A stretch of 31,016 bases of DNA from Nanobdellota archaeon (GTDB lineage: Archaea > Nanobdellota > Nanobdellia > Woesearchaeales > JAHWHD01): NCBI GenBank assembly GCA_034722435.1, contig JAYENX010000045.1, forward strand, positions 1 through 31,016, given 5' to 3'. The notes under the pieces were generated by a model. That model was given only the letters and a program-made list of their open reading frames with translations, ran no database searches and was not told where the DNA came from. How positions within the stretch are numbered: position 1 is the first letter of the stretch; the number at the start of each line of letters is the position of its first letter. A program made the position numbers and the translations under genes. This document shows positions 639 to 12,026 of this stretch, in pieces.

Positions 639-3248
639 TTATTTTTTCTTTCCCCTATCGAGCTCAATCTTTGCTCTCACCATTTGATGCATACGTTTTA
701 AGAATTCGAGTTTATCACCGGCTTTTAAAATATCAGAATAACCTTGTACAATAAGGTTAAAAGCGAACGGACTTGGAACTTTAGAATCTATCAGATGAAC
801 TTTAAGAGTTTTATTTTCAACCCATTTAAGTACTTGTATTGCGTTAGCTATATCCATTAAATCTTCCAGAACTTCGCGCTTTGCCTCTTTAAGAATACAA
901 AAATCTTCAGAGATTCTTTTTACAGCATTTAACAAGATCATTGAAGATACTTGTTGCCTTCCGACATGTTTTTTTCTACCTTTGTAAATGCGAAGAATCA
1001 TCAACGCTCTCCCTGCACAATGTCTAAACCGTCTCTTAAGAACCTCGGAACCGTCAAGAGCTTTGATTAGTATTTGTTTAAGTTCATCTGCTTTTAAAAG
1101 TTCAAAAGCTTTAACAGCATTAATAGGTTTAGCACATCCAACATAGAACCCATTATCACTCATCCCTATCTCAACATCCCTGTGCTGAGTTCTAGAAATT
1201 GCATAAGCAACAGCTCTTGAAAGGGCATCATTAACGCGCCTACCAAAATTAGAATGAAAAATGTAATAAGTTTTTTTACCGTCGTTATATTTTTCAACAA
1301 TCATCCATCGAAGATTAGGAATGCCTATGTAATCGTATTGTTCTTTCATATAATTGTAGATAGCAATAGCAGCATTATCATCAACATATAGATGTTTGTT
1401 AATAAATTTGAGAATATCTTCTTTTGATACATCATTATTAAATTTGTCTTGTACAAGATATTTGAATCTTGATATTGCAACACCTAAGTCAAAAGAAAGA
1501 GGTAACATTTCTGAAAACCAGGAAGGGACAGTAGGCTTTTTGCCTAAAGCAGACATAACCTGGGCGACCATTCCTTTTGCGTACTTAAAAATATAAGTAT
1601 CTCCACCTAAAACGAATATATCGCCCTTTTTTAATCGTTCAAGAAAACCTTCGTCAATAGTTCCAATCATTTGGGTACCGATTTTAATAGTTACACCATG
1701 TTGATCAGGGATTGTACCTATATTAGTCATGTAAATAACTCTTGCCAATCTGCCGCGTTTCCCAATTCTGCCATCTTCATGCCAGATTTTTGCATAGATG
1801 TTCCGGTCTTCTAATTTGGAGAATTCTCCTGCAAGATAATCAATAACTTCATCGAAATCTTTCCGAGTTAAATCTTTATAGCAGTAACTTTGTTTAATTA
1901 ATTTGTAAAGTTCTTTTATTTCAATAATTTGATTAATAGCTATACCATAGATTTGCTGAGCCAGAACATCAAGACAATTAGTAGGTATATGTAAACGATC
2001 AATCTTTTTTTCGAGAGCGTTTTTTAGTAAAACTGAACACTCTATAAGATCGTCTCTGTTCATCACAATAAGTCTTCCTTTTACAGTTTCATGAAGCTTG
2101 TGTCCTGCTCGACCAGCTCTTTGAAGAAATCTAGCTACGCTTTTTGGTGAACCAAGACAAATGACAAGATCCACATAACCAATATCAATACCAAGCTCTA
2201 AAGATGTAGAACAAACTACTGCTTTAAGTTTTCCTTGTCTTAATGATTCTTCAATCTTGAATCGATGAGTTTTTGAAAGTGAACCGTGATGTGCACCTAT
2301 AAGCGAAGATATTTTAGTAGGCGGACCTTCTTCAATCTCATAATATTTGTTAGGAAATTTTTGTTTAAGATGATGAACAACTCGTTCAGTTCCGGAACGA
2401 GTATTAGTGAAAATTAAAGTAGTTTTGTGTTCATGAATTAATTTGTCAATGAGTTCATAAGTCTTTTTGTTTAACTCTTCGTAATCAGTATCTATAAGAT
2501 TAGGAACAGGACTCATAACTTGCAAGTCAGTTTGTTTAATAAATTGAACATCAATAATTTTACAAGATCTTTCTGAACCAACAAGAAAACTAGCGACATC
2601 TTCAAGCGGAGAAACTGTTGCAGAAAGTCCAACACGACAAAGTGCAGGAGAGAACCTTTGTAAACGTTCCATAGATAAAGAAAGATGTACTCCACGTTTA
2701 TTTTCTGCTAAAGCATGAATCTCGTCAATAATGCACCAGTCAACATGAGAAATATGAAATTTAAATTTGGGAGAGTTTATGAGTATTGCTAAAGATTCGG
2801 GAGTAGTTATTAAAATATGAGGCGGAATCTTGGTCATCTTAGAACGTTCATATTGAGTTGTATCACCTGTTCTTACACCGACTCTTATACCCAAAGGAGA
2901 ACCGTGCAGCACTTCCATCTCTTGTAAAGGTTCGATAAGATTTTTGTAAATATCGTTACTTAAAGCTTTTAATGGACTAATGTATATACAGTAAGTACGA
3001 TCTTCAAGAATGCCTTTCAAACTAGAGTCAACAAGCTCGTTAAGTATGGATAAGAATCCTGTCAAAGTTTTAGTCGCACCAGTAGGGGCAGACACAAGAA
3101 TATTGTTTCTTGAATGAATCTCCATAACACCAAATAATTGTGGTTGTGAGAAAGATTTAAACCTATGAAAAAACCATTTAGAAACTAATGGGTGGAGTAT
3201 TTTTTTTAATTGCTTTTCTGTATTAGGTTTTGTTTTATAAGAGATCAT
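639..3248 (-). CDS. lhr: ATP-dependent SF2 helicase Lhr (archaeal Lhr-core), 869 aa
   Basis: Q-motif region FSQPQ, motif I APTGATKT (atypical), Ia YISPLKAL, Ib ITTPES, II DEIH, III SAT, V TSSLELG-like STSLELGID, VI QRAGRAGH, plus the Lhr-type C-terminus (PSWFSE, HSNFGRRVN, FRHCAGRAL). Confidence 0.95.
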   Translation of the reverse strand: MISYKTKPNTEKQLKKILHPLVSKWFFHRFKSFSQPQLFGVMEIHSRNNILVSAPTGATKTLTGFLSILNELVDSSLKGILEDRTYCIYISPLKALSNDIYKNLIEPLQEMEVLHGSPLGIRVGVRTGDTTQYERSKMTKIPPHILITTPESLAILINSPKFKFHISHVDWCIIDEIHALAENKRGVHLSLSMERLQRFSPALCRVGLSATVSPLEDVASFLVGSERSCKIIDVQFIKQTDLQVMSPVPNLIDTDYEELNKKTYELIDKLIHEHKTTLIFTNTRSGTERVVHHLKQKFPNKYYEIEEGPPTKISSLIGAHHGSLSKTHRFKIEESLRQGKLKAVVCSTSLELGIDIGYVDLVICLGSPKSVARFLQRAGRAGHKLHETVKGRLIVMNRDDLIECSVLLKNALEKKIDRLHIPTNCLDVLAQQIYGIAINQIIEIKELYKLIKQSYCYKDLTRKDFDEVIDYLAGEFSKLEDRNIYAKIWHEDGRIGKRGRLARVIYMTNIGTIPDQHGVTIKIGTQMIGTIDEGFLERLKKGDIFVLGGDTYIFKYAKGMVAQVMSALGKKPTVPSWFSEMLPLSFDLGVAISRFKYLVQDKFNNDVSKEDILKFINKHLYVDDNAAIAIYNYMKEQYDYIGIPNLRWMIVEKYNDGKKTYYIFHSNFGRRVNDALSRAVAYAISRTQHRDVEIGMSDNGFYVGCAKPINAVKAFELLKADELKQILIKALDGSEVLKRRFRHCAGRALMILRIYKGRKKHVGRQQVSSMILLNAVKRISEDFCILKEAKREVLEDLMDIANAIQVLKWVENKTLKVHLIDSKVPSPFAFNLIVQGYSDILKAGDKLEFLKRMHQMVRAKIELDRGKKK

Positions 3249-3270: not shown

Positions 3271-3308
3271 TATATAAAGCTTTACAGGACATGTCTAGTG
3301 TCCAGTGG
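3271..3308 (-). promoter_or_regulatory. lhr promoter: TATA box TTTATATA with BRE-like AAAG and conserved upstream motif CCACTGGACACTAGACATGTCC (copy 1)
   Basis: The TATA ends 23 nt before the lhr ATG, as expected for a leaderless transcript. 31/38 ungapped identity to 11989-12026. Confidence 0.75.
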
Positions 3309-3329
3309 CTATATGTATGAATATATAAA

Positions 3330-3350
3330 AAGCATATAGTATATATGCTT
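3330..3350. promoter_or_regulatory. Palindrome AAGCATATA-GTA-TATATGCTT (operator-like)
   Basis: Perfect 9-bp inverted repeat with a 3-nt spacer, immediately after TATATAAAA (3322-3330) in the lhr/kinase divergent intergenic region. Confidence 0.45.
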
Positions 3351-3413
3351 CAGGATTTGGAGTTTATAAGCGTTTCGTAATTTTTTTATAAAAAACGAAT
3401 ATTCTACATAATT

Positions 3414-4382
3414 ATGGTAAATAGAAATTTCAAAAGGAAAAAAAAGATTTGTAGCGATGCGCAAAGAGTTAAGCGTATGGGCGTTGAAGATCTTGCAAGA
3501 TATTATGTTATCGATGTTCATCCGGAACAAAAAGCTGTTTTAGGCGACTTAGTATTGATGAAGATTGCAAGTGGTAAGTCTAACAGATTCACAAGGGCAG
3601 CAGATAGATCCGATCCTAATAAAAAAACTACATCAAGTCAAAGAAAGAGTGCAAAATTTATGTTAAGAAGAGAAAATCTTGCATACGCACATCTTCAACT
3701 TAATCATCCCGCATTTCTACAAGCATTCCCGCAAGTAGGTAAAGATTCTGTTCTTGTAACAGAATTTAGGCCAGGAATAAGTTTAAGGTCTTACGTCAAT
3801 AATAATATAGAAAGGGCTTTGGTTACAGGGGGGAAAGCTATGTTTGAATACATCAGAGATGTGTTGACAACTTCGATAGCTGCTGCACAAGGTGTTGAAT
3901 ACTTTCAAGAGATACCAAATGAGGGTAGTTTAGTATATAGAAATATTAGACCTGAAAAAATATTTATATGCGGAAGAACAAAACAGGGTCGCACAATTTT
4001 GAAAAGACATATTAAATTAGAGGACCTTAGTAGATCTTGCACAGAGGGACCAATTGACCCGAGATTAAATTCAAAAGGATATTCTGAGTACGATGCACCC
4101 GAAACAATAGGAAGAAACGCTTTTGCAGTTCCTAAAAGTGATGTGTACTCTTTGGGAATAGTTTTAAGAGAATCTCTAGGCTTAAGAAATATCAGCATGA
4201 ATGATTTGTTACAGGGAGCAGTTCCAAAATTTAATCTGTTCCCTTCTACAGTCTTCGCATATGATTTTACAAGAGATATGACAGATACAAATCCGAGAAA
4301 CAGACCGACAATGGCTGAAACAGTTTTTGAATTGGACGATATCAGAAATATGCATCTTGCAGATGCCCCTAAATATTTGTAA
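3414..4382 (+). CDS. Hanks-type protein kinase-like protein, probable pseudokinase, 322 aa
   Basis: Kinase subdomains recognisable: E..L..LNHP, LVTEFRPG, YRNIRPEK (HRDxKPxN position), KLEDLS (DFG position), YDAPE, SDVYSLG, RNRPT. TTTATAAA lies about 25 nt upstream of the ATG. Confidence 0.8.
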   Translation: MVNRNFKRKKKICSDAQRVKRMGVEDLARYYVIDVHPEQKAVLGDLVLMKIASGKSNRFTRAADRSDPNKKTTSSQRKSAKFMLRRENLAYAHLQLNHPAFLQAFPQVGKDSVLVTEFRPGISLRSYVNNNIERALVTGGKAMFEYIRDVLTTSIAAAQGVEYFQEIPNEGSLVYRNIRPEKIFICGRTKQGRTILKRHIKLEDLSRSCTEGPIDPRLNSKGYSEYDAPETIGRNAFAVPKSDVYSLGIVLRESLGLRNISMNDLLQGAVPKFNLFPSTVFAYDFTRDMTDTNPRNRPTMAETVFELDDIRNMHLADAPKYL

Positions 4383-4392
4383 AGTGATTAAC

Positions 4393-5208
4393 ATGAAAAA
4401 AATTATTGGAGAAGGATCATATAAACGAGTATTTCTTGAAGAAGAAAGTGGTATAGAAGTTGCTGCAATGTATCCTAAAAGGAAAAATTGTAGAGCCCAA
4501 GTTATTAGAGAAGGAGAAATATTGGCTCAATTTGAACATCGAAATATTCCTCAACTTAGAAATATATCTAAAGGAAAACATGTAAGAATTTCTACAGAAT
4601 ACATCCCAGGCGTTACTTGGAAAAAAAGGCTTGAACAGACTGCCGCGCACCAGAATTATCAAACAAGGATGCATCATTCTTTACACATCATGCGAGAAGT
4701 ATCACAAGCGTTAGTACATGCCCAGGAAAAAGGTTATGTACATCTAGATTTAAATCCAAATAATGTGTTAGTTGTTTTCGAAGAAGGGAAATTAGTCCGA
4801 GCATCAGTTATAGATTGGGCAGGTTCGAGAAAATTGAAAGGAGAAACTGAAGAGGGATACTTTTTCACTCCAGAATTCTCAGCACCAGAAATAATATATA
4901 GTGATTGTACAGATACTAGCGATGTGTATTCTTTAGGAGTTAATTTTTTATATGCTATTGAAGGAAATGCAATTTTTGGTGATTTAAAGTTTGATATGAA
5001 AAATAAAGCGAAATATCCTTTTCAGATGGGAAAAAGAATTCCTCAAGAGGCAGACAGATTGGCAAGGAAAGTTGATGAAGAGCAAGACGGATTAGGAAGT
5101 ATAGTGAATAAAATCGGTCGGCTGTCAATAAATATGGTTCCTGGAAACAGAGTTGATATTGAAGAATTTCATAACGGGATTAATGATTGTATTAGGCAAT
5201 TCTTATGA
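4393..5208 (+). CDS. Hanks-type Ser/Thr protein kinase, 271 aa
   Basis: Gly loop IGEGSYKRV, alphaC REGEIL, HRNIPQL, catalytic loop HLDLNPNN, IDWAG (DFG variant), APE, SDVYSLG. Start re-called to ATG 4393 (preceded by GTGAT). The track start at 4327 overlaps the upstream gene. Confidence 0.85.
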   Translation: MKKIIGEGSYKRVFLEEESGIEVAAMYPKRKNCRAQVIREGEILAQFEHRNIPQLRNISKGKHVRISTEYIPGVTWKKRLEQTAAHQNYQTRMHHSLHIMREVSQALVHAQEKGYVHLDLNPNNVLVVFEEGKLVRASVIDWAGSRKLKGETEEGYFFTPEFSAPEIIYSDCTDTSDVYSLGVNFLYAIEGNAIFGDLKFDMKNKAKYPFQMGKRIPQEADRLARKVDEEQDGLGSIVNKIGRLSINMVPGNRVDIEEFHNGINDCIRQFL

Positions 5209-5240
5209 TTATTTTTATTTTCAATCAAAATTAAAATAAA

Positions 5241-6722
5241 TTATAATTTATCACTTATTTTTTCACCAACAACTTCTACATATTTTAAGTTATTATCAAG
5301 AATAAGCGCTGTTGCTCTATCTACATCTTCAGGAGTGGTCACTCTACAATTATTGTATAAAGAACGTTCGTGAGCAGCAAGTTCTTTTATACCCCATAGA
5401 ACATCAATTTCAGGATTTATTTTTCTTGCGGCATCAATAATTCCGTATAATGAAGGCGATCTAACGTGGCCAGCCCTTACAAGAGAGCCATTAGATTCAA
5501 CACAACAATATGCTTCCAAAGCTTTCTTTGCCGCATCCATAGCACCGTATACATCAAAAGGTCCGACGAAACAATCAGTGAATGCAGTATATCCTACAAA
5601 ATGTTCAGGATTAAAATGTTCATTTAATGCAATTAATGGATCTAAACTTACTTTTTTTGCATTAGCAATTTGATCAGGTGTTGCCCGTGACGCAGGAAAG
5701 CCTACATCTCCAAATGCAGTTGAATAAAGAATAGTAGCTATTTCAGACGTAGGAATGATTCCATCATCATGTAATTTTTTCACGTAATCATCAATATCTT
5801 GAACAAAGGTTTGTGAAATGACATTTGAAGCTTTAAATCCACCATTCATTTGAGTAGGGATAAAAGGAACAGCTTTATCTACCAAGATAATATTGTAATC
5901 GCGCATGAAATGTCGCATTGCTGAATAACCTATTGAACCTGCACCACCAACTATAAGCATTGTTTTATCTTTTATTCTAAATTCATTTTCAATCGACTTA
6001 GCTCTACGGTCGTTTGCGAAAGGCATAAGACCTTTTGCAAGTAAAAGTGACTCTGGCATGTATTCGATTGCCATTTCAGTGTTTAGAAGCAATTTACCAT
6101 TGTGCCAAGTCTCAGTTCTAAAAGTTCCAGTATAAGAAAGTCTACCAAGCTCAGGCATCTGAACATCTCCGACCCTGAAATCAAGGTTTCCAGTAATAGG
6201 TTCACCTGAATGAAAAGCTACACTAATTGATTTGTAAACAGGTGTAAAACCTTCTTGCAAAAGTTCATTAACTCTGCGAACTGCAGAGTTATCTTTAACA
6301 ACATCAGGGTCTCGAACAACATCGAAATTAAAGTTAGAAGTTCTTGCAAGAGGGCCATGCATTATTGTTTCTAGCCCTGAAGAAGTTATAGGGTTTGGAT
6401 AAGTTTTAACCGCTATACATTTTTTAATTGGCTTAGGCTTAGAACTATTAAGTTCAAATGTTACCTTTCTTCTTAAAGTAATAGAATCGTCGTCTTCTTT
6501 GGTCCGTGCAGATACCCCTATAAAATGAGGCATCTGAAAATCTTTAGCTGTGATGGTTTCTGGATCTTTTTCATGCTTTATATCTCCAAGCATCATCATT
6601 GCAGGTGCAACCGCCCTAGAAATACCTTTTTTTTGTAAATCTTTAGTAGCGTGAGGAAGGTTATGATCTCCTGAATCTCGAACAAAGTCGTTATTTTGTT
6701 TTTTAGTATAATTAAAATCCAT
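5241..6722 (-). CDS. Fusion protein: N-terminal MaoC-like (hot-dog) dehydratase/hydratase region plus C-terminal FabI-like enoyl reductase (SDR), 493 aa
   Basis: N-terminal FVRDSGDHNLPH matches the hydratase-2 motif. C-terminal Rossmann GGAGSIG, ILYSTAFG, YGAMDAAKKALE (FabI-type Y-x6-K), RAGHVRS and TPEDV. SD GGTGAT lies upstream. Confidence 0.7.
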   Translation of the reverse strand: MDFNYTKKQNNDFVRDSGDHNLPHATKDLQKKGISRAVAPAMMMLGDIKHEKDPETITAKDFQMPHFIGVSARTKEDDDSITLRRKVTFELNSSKPKPIKKCIAVKTYPNPITSSGLETIMHGPLARTSNFNFDVVRDPDVVKDNSAVRRVNELLQEGFTPVYKSISVAFHSGEPITGNLDFRVGDVQMPELGRLSYTGTFRTETWHNGKLLLNTEMAIEYMPESLLLAKGLMPFANDRRAKSIENEFRIKDKTMLIVGGAGSIGYSAMRHFMRDYNIILVDKAVPFIPTQMNGGFKASNVISQTFVQDIDDYVKKLHDDGIIPTSEIATILYSTAFGDVGFPASRATPDQIANAKKVSLDPLIALNEHFNPEHFVGYTAFTDCFVGPFDVYGAMDAAKKALEAYCCVESNGSLVRAGHVRSPSLYGIIDAARKINPEIDVLWGIKELAAHERSLYNNCRVTTPEDVDRATALILDNNLKYVEVVGEKISDKL

Positions 6723-6786
6723 CTTATCACCAAAAGTAGATACAAATGGGAAATATATAAAGAATTACATATTCTAGAATATAGTT

Positions 6787-7419
6787 TTATCTATGTTTTT
6801 CAATGCCGACCTTTTTACAATGTTTAGATATGGGACATTTAGAACAAAAAGGTGATATGGGTCTACAGATTGTTTGGCCGTGACGTACCATGAGTTCATT
6901 AAAATCGAACCAATATTTTTTAGGAAGTTGTTTTCTTAGAATGAATTCAGTTTCTTCAGGGTTCTTTGTTTTAATCCAACCAATACGATTAGGGATTCTA
7001 TGTGCATGAGTGTCAATAGCCATTGCAAGTTTATTATGGCCGTAGACCATCACTATGTTTGCAGTTTTTCTTCCCACTCCTTTAAATTTAAGGAGTTCTT
7101 CAATAGTGTTAGGAACTTGATTATTGTGATCTTTATGTATGAGTCTAGCAATTTCTTTAATTCTCTTTGATTTAGTTATGTAGAACCCAACTGGATATAT
7201 AAGTTTTTCAATCTGCTTAGTAGAAAGCTTAGAGAGTTTTAATGGAGTCTTTGCAACATTGAACAGACGTTTTGAAGCAAGATAAGTTACTTCATCTTTA
7301 GTTCTTAGACTTAATATACAAGATATTAAAACTTGAAAAGGGTTTTGGTCACCGTGTTCAGACCATTGAGTAACTAAATAATAATCTTTCAGCTTTTTAA
7401 ATATTATTGCAAAGTTCAT
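6787..7419 (-). CDS. nth: Endonuclease III (HhH-GPD DNA glycosylase/AP lyase), 210 aa
   Basis: ILSLRTKD, HhH FKGVGRKTANIV, catalytic IDTH, and the C-terminal 4Fe-4S motif CRPISPFCSKCPISKHC. Confidence 0.95.
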   Translation of the reverse strand: MNFAIIFKKLKDYYLVTQWSEHGDQNPFQVLISCILSLRTKDEVTYLASKRLFNVAKTPLKLSKLSTKQIEKLIYPVGFYITKSKRIKEIARLIHKDHNNQVPNTIEELLKFKGVGRKTANIVMVYGHNKLAMAIDTHAHRIPNRIGWIKTKNPEETEFILRKQLPKKYWFDFNELMVRHGQTICRPISPFCSKCPISKHCKKVGIEKHR

Positions 7420-7450
7420 GTTAATTTATTTATGAAAAAAATGAAAAAAA

Positions 7451-8989
7451 TTATTCTTCGTAACCCCATTTAAAAGATACGCTTGTGATGTCATCACCCG
7501 ATGTATCGAGGTCAGTAATTTCAAGTTTTGCATAATCACCTTCAAGAGTCTTGACCCAATACTTTTTGCCATCTTCTATACCCTCTGCATAACCTTCATA
7601 ACCTGAAGAAGGTGCGTCAGTCATTTCATCAAAAGAATCTGATGTTTCTTCTTTTATTTCGGCACAAGTAGCTCCCTGGTCAATACATTCGCCCATGATG
7701 TCTCCGAAAGAATTAAAAAATATATCTCCATCGTTGAAGTCAGCAGTGTTATCACCAACGCTGAAATCGAAAAAGTCGTGATCTTCCCCAACACTCAAAG
7801 TATCTGAACCAGTAGTCCAACCATCTACAGAAGCACTAGCGGAATCGTCTCCATCTCCACAATCATTATCATTATCTTCTGTACAATCATCAGGACAATA
7901 TCCATCATCATCTTTACAACGTTTAATAGTAGAATGTTCGCATTTTGCAAAAGCTTTGCCAGGATATTCGCAAACGTCTTTAGTTGAATCTCGAGAATCG
8001 TCACAATCAGTATTTTCAAAACATTTAGGTAAATAACATTTTCTATTAAAACAAACTTCCGCGTCGACACAACCGCAATCTTCCATGCACGATTCGCAAT
8101 TTTCAGTTTCCTGACAGACCGAATCTCCACATACAACATCCAATGTTTTATTTTCCAGATTTTGAACAGGTTCGAGAGGTTTATCTTCTTGAGTTTGTTG
8201 TTCTTGCTTTTGTTCTTCTTGATTTTCTTGTTTTTGTTTATTATCTCCAGGTGTTGAAACAATTAATTCAGGTTCTTTACAATCTTGAACGCAGGATGCA
8301 AAAGTTTCATCAGCCTCGCAAATATAGTTACCGCAATTAGATTCAACTTTAACGACAGTTTCTTGAACAATTTTAGGACAGTCCCTTTCACAAGTTTCAG
8401 AGGTTTCACCAGAATCGCAAACTTTGTTTCCGCAAGTGCCTCCGCGAATTACTTTATTAACTAAACCTGAAAAGAAATTTTTAATTTTAGCAAAGAAACC
8501 TGGTTCTTCATCTTCAATATCACAATCTTCCAGGCAAGTTTCGTCTAAGTTAAAAGAGTACATATGCATCTTAAGATCGAAGTTTGCCTTAGACATCACT
8601 GCCCACACTTTCCAATTACCTTCGTCAAATAAAATAGCAGTCATCTTACTCTTATAAGAAGTAGATTCCCCACTTATATGAGAAATTGTTGCTTCGATAT
8701 CGTATTCTGCAGTTGCAATATCATCTTGTACATTTATAATTATGTCGGATAATGCATACGATAAAGTATCATAATTCTGCCAGATAATTTTAGTGTTAGC
8801 TTTTTTCTCTTCTAATTTTGTAGAAGAATAACCTTCTTCAGATATAACCGAATAATAAAGGTTAAAATCTTCCGATGCAGATGCAGAATAATATGTGCCA
8901 ATCACATCTAAAACGTCAGCTTTATCATCAGCAAGGGCTGAAGATACCAGCATTAAAAATATTAGTCCGAAAATTATTGTCTTTTTCAT
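7451..8989 (-). CDS. Secreted acidic Cys-rich protein with an N-terminal NTF2/SnoaL-like region, 512 aa
   Basis: Signal peptide MKKTIIFGLIFLMLVSSALA. Three CGxxxCxxxE(x4)CxxDC repeats, a Q/E-rich linker, further Cys/Asp-rich motifs and no C-terminal TM. ATGA overlap with the upstream gene. Confidence 0.85.
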   Translation of the reverse strand: MKKTIIFGLIFLMLVSSALADDKADVLDVIGTYYSASASEDFNLYYSVISEEGYSSTKLEEKKANTKIIWQNYDTLSYALSDIIINVQDDIATAEYDIEATISHISGESTSYKSKMTAILFDEGNWKVWAVMSKANFDLKMHMYSFNLDETCLEDCDIEDEEPGFFAKIKNFFSGLVNKVIRGGTCGNKVCDSGETSETCERDCPKIVQETVVKVESNCGNYICEADETFASCVQDCKEPELIVSTPGDNKQKQENQEEQKQEQQTQEDKPLEPVQNLENKTLDVVCGDSVCQETENCESCMEDCGCVDAEVCFNRKCYLPKCFENTDCDDSRDSTKDVCEYPGKAFAKCEHSTIKRCKDDDGYCPDDCTEDNDNDCGDGDDSASASVDGWTTGSDTLSVGEDHDFFDFSVGDNTADFNDGDIFFNSFGDIMGECIDQGATCAEIKEETSDSFDEMTDAPSSGYEGYAEGIEDGKKYWVKTLEGDYAKLEITDLDTSGDDITSVSFKWGYEE

Positions 8990-10989
8990 TTTCCAGTATA
9001 TTTAACCTCTAACCCCTTTGCAGGAACAGAGTGCGTGATCGAGTCAGTGGCACCTCCCGCCTTTACAGTTACACGAATATTATAAGATTTCATCCATTCT
9101 CTACCCTTTGCAGCGTCAACGATTTCGAGTTCATTACTTAAGTAATCCTTAAGTGCGTCAATACCTTTACTCTGTGCAATTCCTTTTATATCTTCATCAT
9201 CACCCATAACAAGACCCACAGCACCATCAACAACCTCTTTTGAACCAATAGCCATTAATGCGCCACGTCCAATATATTCCGCAGGATTATTTACATCGTG
9301 TTCAAATAACTTGAAATATTGACCTTCCATATCGTTTAAAGTTTTAATAGAACCGTCAAGATATTTTACAAGATCATCTTTTTTACTTATCTTATCATTT
9401 GCGTTCTCAACCATTTGTAATACATTTTGAACAGATTCTGGAAGATCCTCTACAAAACGTTCAGTTATTGAATCAGTTAATTTTTCATCGTAATGTTTAA
9501 GAGCTTTCTCTTTCAAATCCATTAAATGTTTTTTGAATGTTTTAAGTTGGTTTATCCTAAGATTTCTAGTCATATCAGGAGGAGCCCATCCAAAGTTGAC
9601 GATATTGTCAGTAGTTTTAATAGTCATCTTGTTTCCTTTAGTTATCTTGTCACCGTACTTCAAAGTACCTGCACCAGCAGTAATATAATAAGTCTTTTTA
9701 AGATTTGAGGGATCGTCGACTTCAATAGTTAACGCATTATAAGCTCCAGCAGATGCAGATTGTCGATTAGGTTTGTAAACTCTTTTAATTTTTATAGGTG
9801 GAACTTCTAAACCAAACGAAACCTTTTTTTGTTCAGATTCTTGAGCATTAACACCATAAACATAGATTTTAACCTCTCCCAATTTATCAGATGCAGGACC
9901 AAGGTTCGTTTTTGTTGCTATAATTTTAGTATTAATAATACCATTTTTATCAGTTACTTGTTTTTGTCCACGAACAAGTGCAAAATCAAGATCTCCAACA
10001 ATTTCTCCAATATAAGCATTGTTTTCATGTTCAATCATCACAGTTGGAAGAAGTTCATTTGCTGCAGGCACGACTTTACCTTTTTCAGTTTTCTTAGTCA
10101 TCTTAATAGTAACAGGAATATAATCTTCGCCATCAAGGTTAAGTTTATTCTTTTTAAGGTCGAATTCAAGTTTGTAATCGTAATCTCCAACAGGTTCGTC
10201 TAAAGTTTTACCTGTAACACCAGACCACCATTCTTCGTCCCAGGCCCATTCATAAGCACTCCTACAACCTTCAAGTAACCAGTTTCTAGTGCTGATATGG
10301 TATCGTAAATAGCATTGTTCTCTCATTTCGGCCTTCATACAAATACCGTAATCAGTCAAGAGAGTTTTATCATTTGTACCGCACCTTTCTATTAAATTTA
10401 TAGAACCTACACAATTTTCAAATGCTTGGGCCATTACATCAGGTTCAGAAAAATATTCTGTAGTAAGGCTTTGATCTCTTAAAGAATTAAAAACATTAGG
10501 AATATATTCACCACGATTTTCCCATAGTTCAATTCGATCTACAGTTCCAGCCATACCGTATGATGAACCAGTTTTTGTTCGTTCCTTCATTTCTGCAACT
10601 TTTTCGTTTAATTTATCACGTTTAATAGATTTAGTTTTACAATCATAATAGTATAAACCTATTTCAAAAGAAGCTCTAGGTTTGAGCTCGTTACAAAAAG
10701 CAATTCCACTTTCATATTGTTTTTGTGCGCTACCCGCATGAGCTTGGCAAGAATCAATATAATATTTTGCACCATTAGCAAAACTTTCGGCCGCACTTTG
10801 AGCACGTTCTTCTTTTACTTCATTAGAATAACCAGGATATCGTTCGTTCATATGCTCTAAATATGATACGTACGCTGCACCAGAGTTGAAAGTTGAAGGG
10901 CAGCAATCGGGCAAGGGTTCAGGGCTTGCCAGAACTAAAGGTAATGAAAATAAAGTTATTATAATTAAGATAGGAATTAGTTTTTTCAT
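8986..10989 (-). CDS. Secreted protein with a Cys-rich N-terminus and beta-rich (Ig-like) domains, 667 aa
   Basis: Signal peptide MKKLIPILIIITLFSLPLVLA. SD GAGGT lies upstream. Long ORF, no family recognised. Confidence 0.85.
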   Translation of the reverse strand: MKKLIPILIIITLFSLPLVLASPEPLPDCCPSTFNSGAAYVSYLEHMNERYPGYSNEVKEERAQSAAESFANGAKYYIDSCQAHAGSAQKQYESGIAFCNELKPRASFEIGLYYYDCKTKSIKRDKLNEKVAEMKERTKTGSSYGMAGTVDRIELWENRGEYIPNVFNSLRDQSLTTEYFSEPDVMAQAFENCVGSINLIERCGTNDKTLLTDYGICMKAEMREQCYLRYHISTRNWLLEGCRSAYEWAWDEEWWSGVTGKTLDEPVGDYDYKLEFDLKKNKLNLDGEDYIPVTIKMTKKTEKGKVVPAANELLPTVMIEHENNAYIGEIVGDLDFALVRGQKQVTDKNGIINTKIIATKTNLGPASDKLGEVKIYVYGVNAQESEQKKVSFGLEVPPIKIKRVYKPNRQSASAGAYNALTIEVDDPSNLKKTYYITAGAGTLKYGDKITKGNKMTIKTTDNIVNFGWAPPDMTRNLRINQLKTFKKHLMDLKEKALKHYDEKLTDSITERFVEDLPESVQNVLQMVENANDKISKKDDLVKYLDGSIKTLNDMEGQYFKLFEHDVNNPAEYIGRGALMAIGSKEVVDGAVGLVMGDDEDIKGIAQSKGIDALKDYLSNELEIVDAAKGREWMKSYNIRVTVKAGGATDSITHSVPAKGLEVKYTGK

Positions 10990-10990
10990 A

Positions 10991-11131
10991 TTATTTACCT
11001 CTTTTTATTTTTTTGAATTTTGATTTTATCCAGTTAATTAAATCTCCCCAGGAAAATACATTGTAAATACCTGTTGATTGGATGACAGGGGTTGTAGAAC
11101 TTAGTTTTATACTAGATTTCTCTTTTTTCAT
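10991..11131 (-). CDS. Small basic hypothetical protein, 46 aa (MKKEKSSIKLSSTTPVIQSTGIYNVFSWGDLINWIKSKFKKIKRGK)
   Basis: Manual translation. The stop ends 1 nt before the next ATG (10989). TATATAAA-like box about 25 nt upstream on the minus strand. Confidence 0.6.
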   Translation of the reverse strand: MKKEKSSIKLSSTTPVIQSTGIYNVFSWGDLINWIKSKFKKIKRGK

Positions 11132-11225
11132 GAATGAAGAATATAAATAATGGTTTATATATTTTACTAAATGTATCGAACTACATGAATTCTATAAAGA
11201 AAAATGTTAGGCATATTTGTGAATC

Positions 11226-11966
11226 TTAAGTTTTGTTAAAATATTTATGTTTTAGTTTTTTGTAACAGAATTCCATTATAGGTTTCAAATTGATAGTGTC
11301 CTCTTCGTTATATTGTATTAATAAATCAAGATACTCTTTATCACCTGAAGCGTGATAAGCTTTCCATAAATCAACAGGTGAGCCTCTTAAGTTACGGGGA
11401 CGATTTATGTTAAGTTTTGGTTCAATATCCTTTAACGAACCTTTCAAACCAACCTTACTACAAAGAAATCTTAAATCAATATGAGGTATTTTAGGAATTA
11501 TGTCTGAAAAATACTTTTTCATCACAGGGATGTCGAAGACAGAGCCGTTAAATGTAACAATAAGTTTGTATTTGTTAAGTTCTTGTTTTAGCCTCTTCAA
11601 GTCAAGATTAAAACCGTAAACCATTACTTTTGTATTAATGCCGTCAAACATACCGATTACATTGATATCTCCTTTCTTGTTAGCTATTTCAATATCTAAG
11701 AACAGGGTTTCGTCTTTGAAGAATTCGTATAGACGCCAAGTTTCGGTGCTGGGAAGAAGTTTCGTGAAGTAGTGCGAATTTAAGTTGTACAGAGCTTTCT
11801 GCGCTTCCATAATCTTTCTATTAAAAAAATGTTTTCGTTTATTTGAAATGCCTTTAATTTTTTCAGTCTTTATGAAACAGTGCCAATCTTTAATACCTTG
11901 TTTTAGGATATTCTGTTCAGTTTTCTTGTGTACTTTATCCAAAAATATGAATGAATTTCTTATCAT
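11226..11966 (-). CDS. YprB/RNase H-like DEDD 3'-5' exonuclease (copy 1), 246 aa
   Basis: ExoI FLDIEI, ExoII TFNGSVFDIP, HIDL, GSLKDIE, ExoIII YNEED. N-terminal degenerate HhH-like segment. Confidence 0.9.
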   Translation of the reverse strand: MIRNSFIFLDKVHKKTEQNILKQGIKDWHCFIKTEKIKGISNKRKHFFNRKIMEAQKALYNLNSHYFTKLLPSTETWRLYEFFKDETLFLDIEIANKKGDINVIGMFDGINTKVMVYGFNLDLKRLKQELNKYKLIVTFNGSVFDIPVMKKYFSDIIPKIPHIDLRFLCSKVGLKGSLKDIEPKLNINRPRNLRGSPVDLWKAYHASGDKEYLDLLIQYNEEDTINLKPIMEFCYKKLKHKYFNKT

Positions 11967-11988
11967 GAATAAAAGTTAGAAAAATAAA

Positions 11989-12026
11989 TATATAAACTTT
12001 TAGCGGAGTTGTCCAGTGTCCAGTGG
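11989..12026 (-). promoter_or_regulatory. Exonuclease promoter: TATA TTTATATA with BRE-like AAAAG and conserved upstream motif CCACTGGACACTGGACAACTCC (copy 2)
   Basis: The TATA ends 23 nt before the ATG at 11966, the same geometry as 3271-3308. Confidence 0.75.

Follow-up and report, generated by a model that had tools for sequence, protein, structure and literature searches.

Two promoters of matching layout in the window

The stretch analyzed here (herein the window) comprises 31,016 nucleotides (nt) of contig C45 from the genome of a Nanobdellota archaeon (herein G000; 1.3 Mb, 33% G+C, 60 contigs, 94.5% complete). It carries two copies of a short promoter element, which we call the box, upstream of two minus-strand genes: lhr, encoding a large helicase-related protein, and a gene for a YprB-like exonuclease. 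A sequence-only reading of the window had noticed a 38-nt match between the two promoters and proposed it as the mark of a DNA damage response regulon. The features concerned are as follows.

639 to 3248, minus strand: lhr (large helicase-related; Pfam DEAD, Helicase_C, WH_Lhr, DEAD_assoc)
3271 to 3291, minus strand: 13-nt spacer with a purine stretch resembling the TFB recognition element (BRE), then the TATA box TTTATATA (3271 to 3278)
3292 to 3308, minus strand: box copy 1, upstream element of the lhr promoter, CCACTGGACACTAGACA on the coding strand
11226 to 11966, minus strand: YprB-like RNase H-fold exonuclease (Pfam RNase_H_2, PF13482)
11989 to 12009, minus strand: 13-nt spacer and TATA box TTTATATA (11989 to 11996)
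12010 to 12026, minus strand: box copy 2, upstream element of the exonuclease promoter, CCACTGGACACTGGACA

The segments 3271 through 3308 and 11989 through 12026 form a direct repeat that matches without gaps at 31 of 38 positions (82% identity), and each begins 23 nt from the ATG of its gene (start codons at 3248 and 11966), as had been claimed. On the coding strand both promoters read CCACTGGACACT(A/G)GACA, then 13 nt with a purine-rich, BRE-like end, then TTTATATA, then 22 nt and the ATG. These 22-nt stretches are unrelated between the two promoters, again in agreement with the earlier description; their length implies that the lhr and exonuclease mRNAs are probably leaderless. The 17-mer CCACTGGACACTRGACA has two matches in the window at up to three mismatches, compared with 0.07 expected from shuffled sequences, and the box is missing from the second exonuclease paralog (12570 through 13322) and from every other promoter in the window, as had been stated. 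Orthologs of the box-bearing exonuclease gene in two relatives likewise carry it.

The 8.7-kb interval between the two copies encodes two Ser/Thr protein kinases, an HhH-GPD glycosylase, and secreted proteins without family matches; no recombinase gene was found in it. The two kinase genes are adjacent (3414 through 5208) and diverge from the lhr box promoter.

The box across the genome and its relatives

The 17-mer occurs 10 times in the whole genome at up to two mismatches and gains no copies at three; the set of boxes is therefore sharply bounded, with no degenerate copies. The element consists of one or two head-to-tail CACTGGA heptamers ending in CA, the tandem form being CACTGGA-CACTGGACA. 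All 10 copies have the same orientation and are coupled to a TATA box, with a gap of 13 nt at eight sites and 15 nt at two. Further copies at a fixed distance from a TATA box, which the sequence-only reading had named as a check of its proposal, thus exist, one of them before the radA operon. The genes behind the boxes of this genome are listed by contig.

C41: gene for a 92-residue protein, then radA
C45: lhr and the YprB-like exonuclease gene, each behind its own box
C58: Cas4/Dna2-like PD-(D/E)XK nuclease gene, then a PRC-barrel gene, then an RFC small-subunit gene, all on the same strand
C20: gene for a conserved 57-residue protein
C23 and C36: two Bro-N protein genes, the C-terminal part weakly DinD-like
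C15:23845 to 24100 (L001:5846 to 6100): third Bro-N gene, decayed, shortened and with in-frame TAG and TAA
C23 and C39: two LAGLIDADG-type genes

On C15, the box promoter has outlived its decayed gene. The radA promoter contains, besides its main box, two extra single CACTGGACA boxes (C41:18438 to 18466; L007:5439 to 5467), 65 and 79 nt upstream of it. A single box ∼65 nt upstream recurs in the radA promoters of other families (G002, G040, and G025), and G001 has two, like G000. The extra boxes may be auxiliary operator sites, and those ∼65 nt upstream could allow cooperative binding.

At up to two mismatches the 17-mer was found in 26 of 41 relatives from many families, compared with two matches overall for a reversed control pattern; the counts for G001 and G002 come from unpublished genomes, and no conclusion depends on them. 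A scan of 185,579 species genomes returned matches mostly in Woesearchaeota and Nanoarchaeota metagenome-assembled genomes, along with some labeled Methanosarcinales in third-party assemblies. Bacterial matches to a 16-mer proved to be tandem repeats without a TATA box and were set aside as chance or unrelated. An ungapped alignment of 119 archaeal sites, which masks the two spacing classes of 13 and 15 nt, shows 16 nearly invariant box positions; only position 7, in the first heptamer, varies (A/T). The TATA core stays in register across the same alignment, with T at +31 in 117 of the 119 sites.

Of 117 genomes in the same order, Woesearchaeales-type Nanoarchaeia, 97 have the composite pattern CACTGGACA-N13-15-TWTWTAWA, compared with 2 of the 34 that represent other orders of this class; none has the control pattern. 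Genomes without the exact composite, those of other orders included, have a single box or a CAC-NN-GACA variant at the same site before the 92-residue/radA operon; these variants in other orders indicate that the system is class-wide in variant form. The 10 TATA-coupled copies of this genome, together with those of relatives across the order, support the earlier proposal of a regulon box upstream of the BRE and TATA box.

For gene content we took the first open reading frame (ORF) after each box, clustered all of them by BLAST, and searched 81 nonredundant ones of at least 60 residues against Pfam. The first gene after the box encodes the following.

92-residue family: 22 (radA follows in 25 loci)
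LAGLIDADG protein: 9 to 11
Bro-N protein: 6 to 8
57-residue protein: 6
Xer-type tyrosine recombinase: 5 (L018, L034, L070, L107, L126)
154-residue winged-helix family: 4
RNase H-fold exonuclease: 3 to 4
RadA, directly after the box: 2
DUF763 protein: 2
Single cases: Lhr, Hef, NreA, Tag glycosylase, RadC, Cas4-like nuclease, radical-SAM HhH protein, HsdM

No core replication gene (PolD, MCM, PCNA) is among the 81 scanned first genes. The promoter marks a recombination and repair regulon to which selfish or mobile genes (LAGLIDADG, Bro-N, Xer-type) are attached, and this content would point to DNA damage as the physiological signal. The Xer-type genes, found behind box promoters in five relatives, recall the SOS control of integron integrases.

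Orc1-B as candidate reader of the box

The genome encodes two Orc1/Cdc6 paralogs. Orc1-A (C28:230 to 1444) adjoins the gene for the PolD small subunit and an origin recognition box (ORB). Orc1-B (C3:44910 to 45977; 356 residues) is 27% identical to Orc1-A and is a full Orc1/Cdc6 protein, matching 2QBY_A with E values of 4.8e-25 by sequence and 1.4e-24 by Foldseek; its best fold matches are DNA-bound Sulfolobus and Aeropyrum structures. We consider Orc1-B the most likely reader of the box, whose promoter marks a repair regulon across the order, and we give this reading a probability of roughly 0.6. The earlier suggestion of an Orc1/Cdc6-like binder gains support from the gene linkage and covariation described below; that Orc1-B physically binds the box, and with what sign of regulation and in answer to which signal, we infer.

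Linkage separates the two paralogs: a box with its TATA box lies within 1.5 kb at 11 of 30 Orc1-B loci (14 by a looser count) compared with 1 of 30 Orc1-A loci (Fisher p = 0.0025). The orc1-B gene is itself box-driven in three genomes, and in many others the box drives the 57-residue gene or the radA operon just downstream.

The covariation concerns the central dinucleotide of the box, usually TG, which some genomes have switched in all their promoters, and residue 317 of Orc1-B. The variant-dominant genomes pair as follows.

TA (G147, G054, G163): residue 317 is H, H, S
TC (G056, G130): residue 317 is T, T
TT (G143): residue 317 is F
AA (G043): residue 317 is M
AG (G049, G027): residue 317 is S, T

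Q stands at position 317 in 38 of the order's 43 TG-dominant genomes and in none of the nine variant-dominant ones (p = 5e-7, uncorrected for relatedness). Among the 88 Orc1-B columns conserved in the TG group, 317 alone is changed in every one of the seven variant genomes that made up the first set; I297, also within the winged helix, comes second with a change in four of the seven. No column covarying with the box was found among 171 conserved columns of Orc1-A. In the AlphaFold model, residue 317 falls in a helix (residues 313 through 325) that comes third in the C-terminal winged helix, with a β-hairpin wing after it. In crystal structures of Orc1 bound to DNA, the third helix of the winged helix enters the major groove. 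A prospective set of 20 further genomes had the predicted Q in 14. Loss of Q seems to be necessary but not sufficient for a changed box.

Other candidate readers fared less well. Most box-bearing genomes have a single TFB, although G000 has two, and a second TFB was dropped. The 154-residue winged-helix family was not found in at least eight high-completeness genomes that bear the box and is common in orders without it. The 92-residue protein of the radA operon has no conserved column that covaries with the box; PC4-like in look, with four strands and a helix, it gave no significant structural match (Foldseek E > 0.2; VIA Z ≤ 5.1), no Pfam or NCBIfam match, and no match to a PDB sequence. Neither a LexA S24 peptidase domain (PF00717) nor a WYL domain was found in the 94.5% complete G000, and M78/IrrE gave only a subthreshold match there (E 0.07). 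A weak Cdc6_C match on C30 belongs to an unrelated 80-residue ORF. Phyletic profiles alone do not discriminate among Orc1-B and the 92- and 154-residue proteins, since all three are near-universal.

In the mechanism that we propose, Orc1-B would bind as a polar monomer: its C-terminal winged helix would contact the box, and residue 317, in the recognition helix, would read the central dinucleotide. The direct-repeat layout in a single orientation suits such a monomer more than it would a dimer that recognizes palindromes. With 13 or 15 nt between it and the TATA box, the box spans roughly −60 to −44 relative to the transcription start. Characterized archaeal activators usually bind at about that upstream position. 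Bound Orc1-B would contact TFB/TBP or help to recruit them, that is, activate; because the box lies just upstream of the BRE and TATA box at a rigid distance, we favor activation over repression as the sign, at slightly better than even odds. If Orc1-2 of the Sulfolobales is a guide, the signal would probably be replication stress or DNA damage. To the broader proposal, that an Orc1/Cdc6 paralog is the sequence-specific master regulator of a homologous-recombination and repair regulon throughout the Nanoarchaeia, with its specificity tuned by one recognition-helix residue that has coevolved with all promoters of the regulon, we give even odds.

Several observations weigh against this assignment. 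The six prospective genomes without Q comprise two that are variant-dominant, one mixed, and three that are TG-dominant (K, N, V); in all, K, N, or V at position 317 occurs with TG-dominant boxes in G083, G126, G123, and G173, and in G138 and G166, which belong to other orders, Q goes together with GC boxes. The p values overstate the case because related genomes are not independent. No Orc1-B-type match was found in four box-bearing genomes of the order, G106, G160, G169, and G151, the last with nine box matches and 100% completeness. For two full Orc1 monomers, a repeat of 7 bp is short, and TATA boxes this near to consensus give no particular reason to expect an activator. The resemblance of the box to the ORB, described next, is modest and was noticed after the fact.

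Two further points favor Orc1-B: the DNA damage regulator of Sulfolobus is itself an Orc1/Cdc6 paralog (PMC6061795), and the box resembles the ORB of this genome, GTTCCACAGGAAAC, to which its core CCACTGGA(C)A(C) is identical at 9 of 11 positions (10 of 17 overall); the latter is only a lead. The ORB consensus bound by archaeal Orc1/Cdc6 is CTTCCAGTGGAAACGAAAGGGGT (PMC4153887). In G000 a canonical ORB, GTTCCACAGGAAACTTAGGGGT, lies on C28 (L253:134 to 156), ∼95 nt upstream of orc1-A, with relatives arranged alike; this site, at the contig start, is probably a replication origin. An ORB is defined by the dyad TCCA-N-TGGAAA with a downstream G-string, in clusters at the origin by orc1/cdc6; true ORBs (TTCCAnAGGAAAT..GGGGT) lie ∼100 nt upstream of orc1-A. 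The box, in contrast, has neither the GGAAAC half nor the G-string; it is coupled to TATA boxes and gene starts, dispersed at promoters, and associated with the other paralog than is the ORB. Polar recognition would be common to the box and to monomeric Orc1 on the ORB.

A serious alternative to a damage signal, although an unlikely one in our estimation, is a cell-cycle or replication regulon, in which Orc1-B would switch on recombination and repair genes at replication initiation or under replication stress as a regular part of each cycle. In favor of this, Orc1-B is paralogous to the replication initiator, the 57-residue gene driven by a box adjoins orc1-B in many genomes, and the C58 box precedes a Cas4-like gene followed by PRC-barrel and RFC small-subunit genes. 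Set against this, PolD, MCM, and PCNA are missing from the 81 scanned first genes, and recombination, repair, and selfish nucleases dominate the content, as in SOS-type regulons.

We hold it similarly improbable that the box-bound protein is a repressor with LexA-like logic, blocking TFB/TBP until it is removed. Such a protein would suit the near-consensus TATA boxes and the radA promoters with auxiliary single boxes ∼65 nt upstream, as in looped repressor systems, and SOS-type systems are usually repressed. Characterized archaeal repressors, however, usually bind over the BRE/TATA or the start site (regulators such as TrmBL1, Ptr2, and GvpE), and the box, ending 13 to 15 nt upstream of the TATA box, overlaps neither; its rigid spacing fits contact with the preinitiation complex.

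Doubtful as well is the possibility that the box is a real regulon element read by another transcription factor, Orc1-B being a mere neighbor or target whose residue 317 tracks the box indirectly. The four box-bearing genomes lacking an Orc1-B-type match, the imperfect map from residue to dinucleotide, and the 3 of 30 genomes in which orc1-B is box-driven like a plain target all agree with it. It is opposed by the specificity of the covariation, which singles out one recognition-helix residue of Orc1-B and appears in neither Orc1-A nor the 92-residue protein, and by the failure of the other candidates tested (second TFB and 154-residue family, with LexA S24, WYL, and IrrE not found). A reading in which the window copies mark the attachment (att)-like ends of a mobile element of 8.7 kb, or were left over by chance from a duplicated promoter and share no regulator, could be entertained because a direct repeat flanks the interval, but this reading, raised beforehand as what might undo the proposal, is refuted by the distribution of the box: 10 unlinked copies on eight contigs, always joined to a promoter with constant orientation and register relative to TATA box and gene start, conserved in 97 of 117 genomes of the order, and an interval without a recombinase.

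Comparison with known systems and further observations

Full-text searches (Woesearchaeota/DPANN promoter, regulon, radA, and the motif string) returned no description of this element or regulon. A repair regulon with a shared promoter motif is already known, as is an Orc1 paralog acting as regulator in one crenarchaeal order; new here are the motif, the lineage, the radA-centered content, and the predicted specificity residue. Outside the Sulfolobales, we know of no transcriptional network established for DNA damage or recombination genes in Archaea and, to our knowledge, nothing is known of gene regulation in the DPANN archaea, which cannot yet be grown alone.

The closest parallel to the proposed Orc1-B regulon is in the Sulfolobales, in which the Orc1/Cdc6 paralog Orc1-2 regulates the DNA damage response, with binding and induction shown experimentally (Sun et al. 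2018, PMC6061795). Both systems have an Orc1/Cdc6 paralog distinct from the origin-bound initiator, here the proposed master regulator, and a short promoter motif on damage-related genes, and in both the regulator gene can be a member of the regulon. The Sulfolobus motif is a hexanucleotide, whereas the present one is the 9-nt CACTGGACA box, often doubled and rigidly spaced from the TATA box. In Sulfolobus the regulon consists chiefly of pili, DNA import, tfb3, and cell-cycle genes and does not center on radA; here it centers on radA, lhr, hef, and nucleases, in a DPANN and not a Thermoproteota lineage, with binding and induction predicted.

As in the bacterial SOS system, one shared operator precedes genes for the recombinase, repair proteins, DinD-like proteins, integrase-type recombinases, and selfish elements, and in gene content the two are close in character. 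Unlike SOS, the system runs on archaeal transcription machinery in a genome in which no LexA-type S24 peptidase was found; the SOS operator is a palindrome lying over the promoter, whereas the box is built of direct repeats with a polarity and precedes the TATA box. In the PafBC (RecA-NDp) promoters of Actinobacteria, recA, lhr, and further repair genes have a LexA-independent activator motif immediately before the core promoter element. The box shares this placement directly upstream of a core promoter element of repair genes, lhr included; PafBC, in contrast, is a WYL-domain regulator, and G000 yielded no WYL domain.

The clean, easily recognized promoter signature lets a repair regulon be annotated across hundreds of genomes from uncultured organisms and comes with a concrete candidate regulator, a predicted specificity residue, and a natural series of regulator/operator variants. 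Homing endonucleases, Bro-N genes, and Xer-type recombinases use what appears to be the host's repair switch. If an Orc1 paralog does control the regulon across the Nanoarchaeia, Orc1-based control of the damage response would be an old and widespread archaeal solution and not a peculiarity of the Sulfolobales, and selfish nucleases, along with Xer-type cassette recombinases, would have tapped into it much as prophages and integrons do into SOS.

Some members of the regulon have features of their own. The 57-residue family (52 to 70 residues; C20, L002:1404 to 1574) has an N-terminal VDLSxKTIxxLF and a C-terminal TFDxQFSDxW motif and no family match; its genes always stand behind a box, usually between orc1-B and a YrdC/Sua5-like gene. 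The protein could be a small damage-induced regulator; a ribbon-helix-helix factor was considered and rejected, as its conserved ends are unlike one. The 154-residue winged-helix protein (C6:6220 to 6675; L178:1501 to 1956) is near-universal in the class, strongly conserved (E ∼1e-60), and not assigned to any family; its gene carries the box in about six genomes, G000 not among them.

In the leader of the 92-residue/radA operon (C41:18560 to 18690; L007:5560 to 5690), a variable hairpin is followed by a highly conserved terminal stretch, GTTGAAATAAAATGCGAAAGCAAGGAGG, and ∼45 relatives are alike; several genomes of other orders have the word TGAAAYAAAAWSCGAAAGG as a tandem duplicate in their radA leaders. 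Searches of Rfam matched neither the conserved leader element nor, downstream of boxes without an ORF, any family. The GTTGAAATAAAATGCGAAAGCAAGGAGG stretch looks like a conserved RNA regulatory element around the ribosome-binding site. A search for RNA sequencing runs that contain the radA operon DNA found none. At the far end of the window, a giant ORF of more than 1,900 codons (25248 through 31016) runs past the window end and contains internal repeats of ∼1.73 kb with 72 to 76% identity.

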